A stretch of 64,000 nt of DNA, from assembly GCA_016197155.1 (NCBI GenBank), contig JACPWF010000036.1, forward strand, positions 931-64,930. Direction: 5' to 3'. A program made the position numbers and the translations under genes. The notes under the pieces were generated by a model. The model was not told the DNA's origin. It did no database searches and worked only from the letters and a program-made list of their open reading frames with translations. The stretch comes from Candidatus Omnitrophota bacterium. Its GTDB lineage: Bacteria > Omnitrophota > Gorgyraeia > 2-02-FULL-51-18. Below, piece after piece: positions 57,528 to 58,491 of this stretch; positions within the stretch are counted from its first letter, which is position 1, and each line of letters starts with the position of its first letter.

Positions 57528-57810
57528 GAAGTAGATCATTGGGACGATTGTTGTAGTTACGTTAATAAACTTGGCTATATGCTGGAACATCTCGTTGAAA
57601 TTCAGTACTGCATCATAATTATATTGCAGTGACAATCTGAACGGAGAGACAATCAGCAGGAAAGATCCACAGAGTTTTTTAGTGGAAATCCTCAGAGACT
57701 GCACGCCGAGCTTCTTCAAAAAAGAAGAAGATGATACAGTCCGATCTTCATGGTGACATGAAGAGTGAGTAGTTAATCTCATCGCTTTCGCAAGAAAGCG
57801 TAACAACATG
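57528..57810 (+). mobile_element. Group I intron (ORF-less) at 23S position L1917 (E. coli numbering)
   Basis: 5' exon ends GCGGCCGTAACTAT; 283 nt follow, ending ...CAACATG before AACGGTCCTAAGGT. The 5' exon ends in U and the intron ends in G. Shares sequence blocks (CTATATGCTGGAA, GACAATCAGCAGGAAAG, AGTCCGATCTTCATGGTGACATGAAGA) with the third intron. Confidence 0.65.
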
Positions 57811-57824
57811 AACGGTCCTAAGGT

Positions 57825-58491
57825 TAGTAACGCTAGCCTGCTTCGATGGTAACATCGAAGGTAATATTCAACTATATGCGGGAAACTCTTCAAAAGATGC
57901 TGGTACTCGTTGATCTTCGGATGCAACAGTAAAAAACCAACATACAAGGAGACAATCCGCAGGGAAGGCATAGAAAACTATGAACCCTCAGAGACTACAA
58001 GTTGAATATCCGGAAAGTCACGAGACTTTATTGAGTCCGGATTGGTTGGTGGGTTTCGTGGATGGCGAAGGTTGTTTTCACGTCGGAATAAGCAAACACA
58101 ACGAGGTCAAATTCGGTTACCAGATTTTGCCGGAGCTGACGGTTGTTCAGCATCAAAGTGATATCGCTCTTCTTCATCGAATACGCACATTTATGCAGTG
58201 CGGCGTGGTGAGAAGAAATCATGGAGATCGCTATTGCTGGCGAGTTCGAGATTTAAAAAATCTCACTCAGATTATTCTGCCGTTTTTTCAAAAGCATCCT
58301 TTGAGGTCCAAGAAAAACATCGAATTCGAAAAGTTCGCTGATGTCGTTCGCCGAATGCAAAAAGGTGAACATTTAACAGCGGACGGATTTAATAAAATTG
58401 TGACTCTCGCTTCAAGCATGAATAAAAAACATGATAGGAGCGAACGGATAAAGATAGAGTCCGAACCGTGATGAAACTCATGGATAATTCG
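57825..58491 (+). mobile_element. Group I intron at 23S position L1931 carrying a LAGLIDADG homing endonuclease gene
   Basis: Follows the 14-nt micro-exon AACGGTCCTAAGGT (positions 1918-1931) and ends ...GGATAATTCG before AGCGAAATTCC. Contains the ORF 57980-58471. Confidence 0.7.
57980..58471 (+). CDS. LAGLIDADG homing endonuclease (single-motif, I-CreI-like), encoded in the L1931 intron
   Basis: LVGFVDGEGCFHVGISKHNEVKFGYQILPELTVVQHQSDIALLHRIRTFMQCGVV... 163 aa. An RBS-like GGGAAGG lies upstream. Local GC is about 40%, versus about 62% for the genome. Confidence 0.85.
   Translation: MNPQRLQVEYPESHETLLSPDWLVGFVDGEGCFHVGISKHNEVKFGYQILPELTVVQHQSDIALLHRIRTFMQCGVVRRNHGDRYCWRVRDLKNLTQIILPFFQKHPLRSKKNIEFEKFADVVRRMQKGEHLTADGFNKIVTLASSMNKKHDRSERIKIESEP

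Follow-up and report, generated by a model that had tools for sequence, protein, structure and literature searches.

The 23S rRNA gene in the window, which is the whole 64-kb stretch of DNA analysed here, very probably contains three mobile group I introns, inserted after E. coli positions 1917, 1931 and 2604 (L1917, L1931 and L2604). They would be independent ribozymes, with homing endonucleases encoded by the introns at L1931 and L2604. The first two introns flank a micro-exon of 14 nt.

The window had a single rrn operon, and the parts of its 23S rRNA gene are listed in Table 1. Positions were numbered by the annotated rrlB of E. coli K-12 (NC_000913.3, 2,904 nt). Against this gene, the first exon terminates at 57527 (E. 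coli U1917) with GCCGTAACTAT, and the third exon opens at 58492 (A1932) with AGCGAAATTCC. The DNA of the micro-exon, AACGGTCCTAAGGT (57811-57824), was identical with rrlB 1918-1931 at 14/14 positions. The 3' end of the L1917 insert reads ACATG and that of the L1931 insert reads AATTCG. The bacterial LSU covariance model independently gave inserts of 284 and 670 nt at the L1917 and L1931 points. A preliminary description, made from the letters of the DNA, had placed two introns at 1917 and 1931 with lengths of 283 and 667 nt around an exon of 14 nt; its coordinates and lengths were all exact against rrlB, and the two insertion sites agreed with the alignments to both references. The string GAACGGTCCTAAGGTT, composed of the terminal G, the micro-exon and a T, would mark double-intron 23S genes.

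Table 1. Features of the rrn operon and of the three introns in the window (positions of the window; numbering of 23S rRNA after E. coli).
Feature	Position	Strand	Details
rrn operon, single in the 64-kb window	16S 53684-55039; 23S from 55490; 5S 60280-60396	+	with two tRNAs
23S exon 1	55490..57527	+	E. coli 1-1917; Rfam LSU_rRNA_bacteria match 2271.8 bits; end set against K-12 rrlB
L1917 group I intron	57528..57810	+	283 nt; no endonuclease gene; GC 0.40; terminal G 57810
Candidate L1917 P10 strand UGGGAC	57540..57545	+	just upstream of guide; predicted pairing with micro-exon nt 1922-1927
L1917 internal guide sequence UUGUAGUU	57551..57558	+	P1 with 57522-57529; U1917 (57527)·G57553 wobble
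L1917 P7 5' strand, G-A(bulge)-GACUG	57695..57701	+	pairs with CAGUCC 57736-57741
Micro-exon AACGGUCCUAAGGU	57811..57824	+	14 nt; E. coli 1918-1931; helix 69 3' strand and following linker
L1931 group I intron	57825..58491	+	667 nt; GC 0.42; terminal G 58491
L1931 internal guide sequence CUAGCCU	57833..57839	+	P1 with 57821-57827 (AGGU/UAG, splice site at the slash); U1931·G57836 wobble
Extra P2 hairpin, L1931 intron	57841..57860	+	8 bp, GUAA loop
LAGLIDADG homing endonuclease gene, L1931 intron	57980..58471	+	163 aa, single motif, PF00961 6.4e-26
23S exon 3	58492..59164	+	E. coli 1932-2604
Third group I intron (probable), after U2604	59165..59915	+	751 nt; GC 0.42; terminal G 59915; LAGLIDADG gene inside
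LAGLIDADG gene, L2604 intron	59298-59798	+	166 aa, single domain, PF00961 2.7e-23
23S exon 4	59916..60204	+	E. coli 2605 to 3' end

The whole 64-kb window was scanned with the Rfam model Intron_gpI (RF00028), for which the gathering score is 50 bits. The L1917 insert matched with 67.7 bits (E = 4.9e-15, 57518-57763) and the L1931 insert with 76.5 bits (E = 1.1e-17, 57815-58483), and these matches are not due to chance. The reading of both inserts as group I introns, which the preliminary description had given together with the suggestion of such a covariance-model search, is upheld by these scores, by the E. coli numbering and by the covariation described below; both intervals pass the cut-off with a P3-P7 core. 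The boundaries also follow the rule invoked there that the exon ends in U and the intron ends in G, with U1917 and U1931 before the inserts and G at 57810 and 58491. The last base at 59915 is G as well, and a terminal G was found in every homologous L1917 and L1931 intron (12 double-intron sequences) and in the L2604 homologues.

For the fold of the L1917 intron, seven same-site homologues lacking an endonuclease gene were aligned without a model and analysed with RNAalifold, and the P7 pseudoknot was added manually. RNAalifold gave P1, P3, P4, P5, P5a, P6, P6a, P8, P9 and P9.1. With P7 included, 96.1% of the cells were paired and 31 of 63 pairs showed compensatory change among the seven homologues, while control structures slid by 1-3 columns had 33-38% of cells paired. 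The P7 pseudoknot itself was 100% paired in the homologue alignment, with compensatory change in two pairs, and the pair G57697-C57740 beside the bulged A is presumably the guanosine-binding site of this intron. In P5a, 5/7 pairs were unpaired in the window's own row of the MAFFT alignment; we treat these cells as an alignment shift because the helices would be restored in a register set by eye. The helices that can be restored by eye, and not by a tool, are UUCAG (57601-57605) with CUGAA (57637-57641) and CUGCA (57608-57612) with UGCAG (57625-57629).

The fold of the L1931 intron was examined with 42 homologues. It had 87.4% of cells paired and compensatory change in 34 pairs, against 30-53% of cells paired in the slid controls, and its P7 was 98% paired. 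All 59 tested pairs form in the window's own sequence. The extra P2 hairpin of this intron was present, among the aligned L1931 introns, only in a subgroup of the window and five other loci (L002, L003, L004, L057 and L077); among its six bearers it was 94% paired, with compensatory change in seven pairs. Subgroup labels for introns of this kind differ between papers (IB2, IC1-like or other).

The guide sequences of both introns fit their splice sites. All seven homologues of the L1917 intron form P1, with an invariant U·G at the splice site. The candidate P10 duplex of this intron has 6 bp and -8.2 kcal/mol (RNAduplex), with an exon strand that is invariant and so gives no covariation test. 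At the equivalent place in 10 other double-intron loci, GGACC or GACCG pairs with 1920-1926. In the L1931 intron, the splice-site U1931·G was found in 41/41 homologues. P1 of the window's L1931 intron includes only four exon bases, nt 1928-1931, plus the first three intron bases (-4.2 kcal/mol), whereas the guide pairs with 1925-1931 in most other lineages. Its P10, CGCU with AGCG, was seen by inspection and is a short helix of 4 bp, again with an invariant exon strand and no covariation test. The P1 and P10 pairings of the micro-exon are likewise closed to covariation testing because the exon is invariant.

RNase III intervening sequences are common in bacterial 23S genes (PMC4990558), and if the two inserts were of this class, they would be excised without ligation and leave a fragmented 23S rRNA. 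Such fragmentation at 1917 and 1931 would free a 14-mer. The inserts do not fall into this class: they are located in the functional core and not at the tip of a peripheral helix, and both hold complete group I cores above the Rfam threshold with covariation. The preliminary description had named the lack of a group I core as an outcome that would speak against introns; P3-P7 and the guanosine site were found, with covariation backing at both L1917 and L1931. Taken together, the splice-site U·G (7/7 and 41/41), the terminal G and the covarying folds lead us to reject the reading as intervening sequences, to which we give practically no probability.

The group I reading gives the following scheme for the precursor rRNA. 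The L1917, L1931 and L2604 introns would each fold as an independent ribozyme and would excise themselves by the standard two-step reaction initiated by guanosine. The L1917 guide would pair with 1910-1917 (P1, with U1917·G), and once the first step is over, this intron would form P10 with the micro-exon at about 1922-1927. The L1931 guide would pair with 1928-1931 and with the intron's own first three bases (P1, with U1931·G), and this intron would then pair with 1932-1935 (P10). As the two introns would hold neighbouring stretches of the micro-exon that overlap little or not at all, either of them could splice first. The order of splicing would then be free, and the micro-exon would finally be ligated into helix 69 and the linker that follows. 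This arrangement, as modelled, fits independent splicing in either order. The splicing of the window's introns is predicted here from structure and from the precedent of Coxiella. Skipping of the micro-exon is a possible side reaction in the window's 23S rRNA, and a 23S rRNA without the 14-nt exon may be defective, which could be costly or serve to control ribosome production.

The preliminary description had reported a LAGLIDADG ORF in the second intron, and this ORF (57980-58471) did match Pfam LAGLIDADG_1 at 6.4e-26. The uninterrupted ORF encodes a 163-aa protein with one LAGLIDADG_1 domain and the motif LVGFVDGEG; D28, E30, G31, Q48 and K112 were invariant among 16 relatives. Its best solved relative was 5gkk (1.2e-47). 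At E <= 1e-5 the protein had 991 homologues; over 100 of these had an identity of at least 60%, almost all of them metagenomic. The ORF has its ATG in P6, extends through J6/7, P7, P3', P8 and the P8 loop, and has its stop just past the 3' strand of P7. This start in P6 and the overlap with the core are typical of the L1931 lineage that includes the window, L002, L003 and L004. Because the ORF starts in P6 and is read through the core, the conserved M-x-P-Q-R N-terminus comes from an invariant ribozyme string, CCUCAGAGAC. Cyanobacterial introns are known to have ORFs that overlap the core in the same way (Haugen et al. 2007, PMC1995217). For the 166-aa protein of the L2604 intron, the best solved relative was I-SmaMI. 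The GFVDGEG motif is intact in the endonuclease genes. An endonuclease of the homodimer type is encoded by both the L1931 and the L2604 intron; it presumably cuts intron-less 23S alleles and leads to homing. In the L1917 intron such a gene was either lost or never present. Among antisense ORFs over the introns, none had a family match above the cut-off.

The third intron and its endonuclease gene were absent from the preliminary description. The insert is located at 59165-59915 between GAGACAGU (U2604) and UCGGUC (U2605), and the LSU model gave a 766-nt insert at this point. L2593, the site used in cyanobacteria, was considered for this intron and was ruled out by the K-12 numbering, which gives L2604. 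The insert scored 38.9 bits with Intron_gpI, below the cut-off of 50, and same-site homologues without an endonuclease gene scored above it (71 bits in L039 and 51.7 bits in L017). The core shares motifs with that of the L1917 intron. A recent duplication between L1917 and L2604 within the window was rejected because their identity of 57% is no higher than that between genomes. Of the 60 loci covering this position, four had an intron at L2604. A literature search for "L2604" returned nothing relevant; the site is named "2604" in PMC11270868.

The 16S rRNA gene upstream, in the same operon, is shortened to 1,356 nt: about 190 nt are absent at 54184/54185, corresponding to E. coli about 500-685 and including the universally required 530 loop. 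With this deletion, the operon may have been wrongly assembled or may be dead. Metagenome bins commonly show, as an artefact of assembly, a clean deletion within the most conserved part of a 16S rRNA gene, and an assembly collapse is the most likely explanation of the gap. The other possibility is that the operon is decaying or non-functional, with introns that are relics freed from the need to splice. We consider this improbable: the 23S exons align with the model over its full length (1-2925, 2271.8 bits), 59/59 tested pairs form in the window's L1931 intron, and neither endonuclease ORF is interrupted or lacks the conserved motif residues.

The 16S deletion is also at least one oddity in an operon of the kind most prone to chimeras in metagenome bins, and rRNA pieces of different organisms, some with L1917 and others with L1931, might have been joined at the conserved 14-mer. 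A separately assembled public contig of 1,024 bp (L001; Logan, SRR12113391), which covers both introns and the micro-exon, is identical with 57498-58521 of the window and speaks against a chimeric join. In addition, an overlap of 14 nt is too short for joins by assemblers, and several closed chromosomes (e.g. OY969801.1, OZ244060.1 and OZ244928.1) are among the ten further genomes with the same layout. We consider a chimera very improbable.

Other loci were collected by scanning one genome per bacterial species with an alignment of the protein encoded by the L1931 intron. At least 554 loci were obtained, of which 80 were kept and 78 were parsable. All 78 had the L1931 insert and ten had the L1917 insert too; this fraction (13%) is no population frequency because the loci were picked through the L1931 endonuclease. 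The micro-exon was identical in all ten other double-intron loci, which were L003 and loci of Elusimicrobia (L002), Eisenbacteria (L008), Nitrospirales (L023), Thiotrichaceae (L055), Anaerolineae (L057), Gemmatimonadota (L059), Acidobacteriota (L067), Syntrophus (L079) and Gammaproteobacteria (L080). The L1917/L1931 pair with a 14-nt exon is a recurrent arrangement across phyla and not a curiosity. In 6/10 of these loci the L1917 intron has no endonuclease gene, as in the window, and is 256-327 nt long; in the other 4/10 it contains a LAGLIDADG gene of 164-189 aa. The window's L1917 intron had 54-76% identity with its homologues. A further insert near 1954/1955 was found in L023, L059 and L080, and L080, with L1917, L1931, about L1955 and L2604, has a superset of the window's intron set. 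A Thermosynechococcus locus (L060) had L1931 and L2593.

The pairing of the two introns in one gene, called unusual in the preliminary description, had in fact been published in 2007: the 23S rRNA gene of Synechococcus sp. C9 carries L1917 (743 nt), L1931 (666 nt) and L2593 introns (PMC1995217), and introns at L1917 and L1931 leave the same 14-nt exon. That description had also named L1917 and L1931 as the two known hot-spots of introns in bacterial 23S genes. Both are known sites, as it held, but they are not the sole ones, since L1951/1952, L2593, L2604 and L2657 are documented as well (PMC1995217, PMC11270868) and L2604 is occupied in the window. In CPR bacteria, LAGLIDADG_1 inserts are located at 23S positions 1917, 1931, 1952, 2593, 2604 and 2657 (Tsurumaki et al. 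2024, PMC11270868).

Strain C9 is similar to the window in having L1917 and L1931 in one 23S rRNA gene, where the peptidyl-transferase region holds a third intron, and in both of them single-motif LAGLIDADG genes extend into the ribozyme core. The L1931 introns are nearly of one size (666 nt with a 167-aa endonuclease in C9, 667 nt with 163 aa in the window). However, the L1917 intron of C9 has an endonuclease gene (743 nt, 181 aa) and that of the window has none (283 nt), the third intron is at L2593 in C9 and at L2604 in the window, and the hosts belong to Cyanobacteria and Omnitrophota, respectively. The L1931 introns of Thermotoga, Simkania and Thermosynechococcus/Synechococcus lividus are located at the same site, with 654-700 nt and a single-motif LAGLIDADG gene of 143-167 aa (PMC1995217 Table 1), but the window's L1931 intron differs from them by the added P2 hairpin and by an ORF that starts upstream in P6. 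The CPR inserts often occur several per gene, and all three sites of the window are among theirs (PMC11270868). The window's host is non-CPR, with about 58% GC, and insert frequencies are far lower outside CPR (PMC11270868).

Coxiella is the experimental precedent. It has an L1917 intron and a second intron a few tens of bases downstream, with a very short internal exon between them. In this layout it resembles the window; the second intron is at L1951 and leaves a 34-nt exon, whereas in the window it is at L1931 and leaves 14 nt. Splicing was demonstrated experimentally in Coxiella, with some exon skipping; in the window it is predicted. Cbu_L1917 is reportedly without an endonuclease gene in the primary Coxiella papers. 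A LAGLIDADG gene is given for Coxiella only at L1951 (PMC1995217 Table 1). The L1917 and L1951 introns of Coxiella are described as spliced from the precursor (PMC4990558), and exon skipping is reported for the 34-nt exon of Coxiella and for a 23-nt exon of phage Twort (PMC10136302). The latter, in orf142, is likewise a very short exon between tandem group I introns, and its inclusion and skipping compete (PMC10136302). In contrast to the window's rRNA gene, orf142 of the phage codes for a protein and its two introns are nearly identical, while the window's two introns differ in core and guide.

With the window, a member of Omnitrophota joins the bacteria known for several introns in one 23S gene. 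Genes of this kind are well documented, and the L1917/L1931 pair opens no new question. Double-intron loci are natural tests of two ribozymes sharing a very short exon and of group I exon skipping. Multi-intron genes will be mis-sized by rRNA gene callers and 23S-based typing, and the micro-exon is easily missed in annotation.

GC content was 0.40-0.42 in the introns, 0.52 in the 23S exons and 0.58 in the rest of the window. The low GC of the introns fits elements imported from elsewhere. Among 11 double-intron genes, the similarities of the L1917 and L1931 introns were correlated (Mantel r = 0.38, p = 0.011), and controlling for the similarity of the host 23S exons gave r = 0.26 and p = 0.06. 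The window's L1931 intron groups with L002 and L003, and its L1917 intron does not. Co-transfer of L1917 and L1931 as a cassette was not established in these genes, with the partial Mantel p of 0.06 and the differing nearest relatives. One could speculate that the endonuclease-less L1917 intron hitch-hikes on the L1931 endonuclease, and that L1917, the micro-exon and L1931 form a composite mobile unit moving across phyla. A double-strand break at 1931 would then be repaired with an intron-bearing copy as donor, and L1917 would be brought along by co-conversion over the 14-bp exon. The idea is reasonable, but we regard such a unit as unlikely.

The host is a Candidatus Omnitrophica MAG, and the prolyl-tRNA synthetase of the window is 100% identical to a protein of a Candidatus Omnitrophica MAG. 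The closest 23S rRNA gene among the fetched loci is also from Omnitrophota, at only 74% identity. The rest of the window contains ordinary housekeeping genes of a Gram-negative bacterium (topA, infB, rpsA, proS, tyrS and LPS genes), with a diguanylate cyclase nearby.

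The 23S rRNA gene of the window carries a third group I intron, at position L2604, with a LAGLIDADG gene of its own (listed in the table below). This intron scored 38.9 bits, which is under the Rfam threshold; in two related loci (L039 and L017), homologues that occupy this site and lack an endonuclease gene pass that threshold. Position 2604 is among the sites given for CPR bacteria (PMC11270868). The insert set found in one 23S gene of locus L080 is a superset of that of the window, and its host belongs to an unrelated phylum.

In the L1931 intron, the ribozyme core and the endonuclease ORF overlap at window positions 57980-58030 and 58445-58471. 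The invariant J6/7-P7 string CCUCAGAGAC encodes the conserved N-terminal M-x-P-Q-R of the endonuclease, and the P7 3' strand encodes its C-terminus. Such a far upstream ORF start is present only in the lineage of the window and loci L002, L003 and L004; in most homologues the start codon of the ORF is an ATG within the P8 loop.

A further 23S insert, at about E. coli 1954/1955 and just past the L1931 intron, was observed in loci L023 (about 3496-4850), L059 and L080, which thus have three inserts inside about 40 nt of 23S; the internal exons between these inserts are 14 and about 23 nt long. It is present too in L027, L042, L044, L062 and L066. A BLAST-based map also placed large inserts at other 23S positions in several genomes.

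The 16S gene of the same operon is short. Near 54184/54185 ...CCCCCAAAGGAAGCC runs straight into TGAAATCTGTAGATATC..., and E. coli positions of about 500-685, including the 530 loop, are missing. This gap is either an assembly collapse or the mark of a dead copy.

Features of the window and of related loci
Feature	Location	Detail
Third group I intron, 23S	window 59165-59915	inserted after E. coli U2604
LAGLIDADG ORF in L2604 intron	window 59298-59798	166 aa
16S gene	window 53684-55039	only 1,356 nt
L080 (Gammaproteobacteria MAG, closed chromosome)	OZ244928.1, 3519-6215	inserts L1917, L1931, ~L1955, L2604
23S insert, L055 and L047	~1160-1186	BLAST-based map
23S insert, L066 and L068	~2262	BLAST-based map
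23S insert, L062	~2450	BLAST-based map
23S insert, L006	~2532	BLAST-based map

Elsewhere in the window, a single uninterrupted ORF (2949-5438) includes a ThiS-like segment at residues 85-148, and a full DNA topoisomerase I (residues 157-760) follows it directly in the same reading frame. This could be a true fusion, or the mechanical ORF call may have run on.
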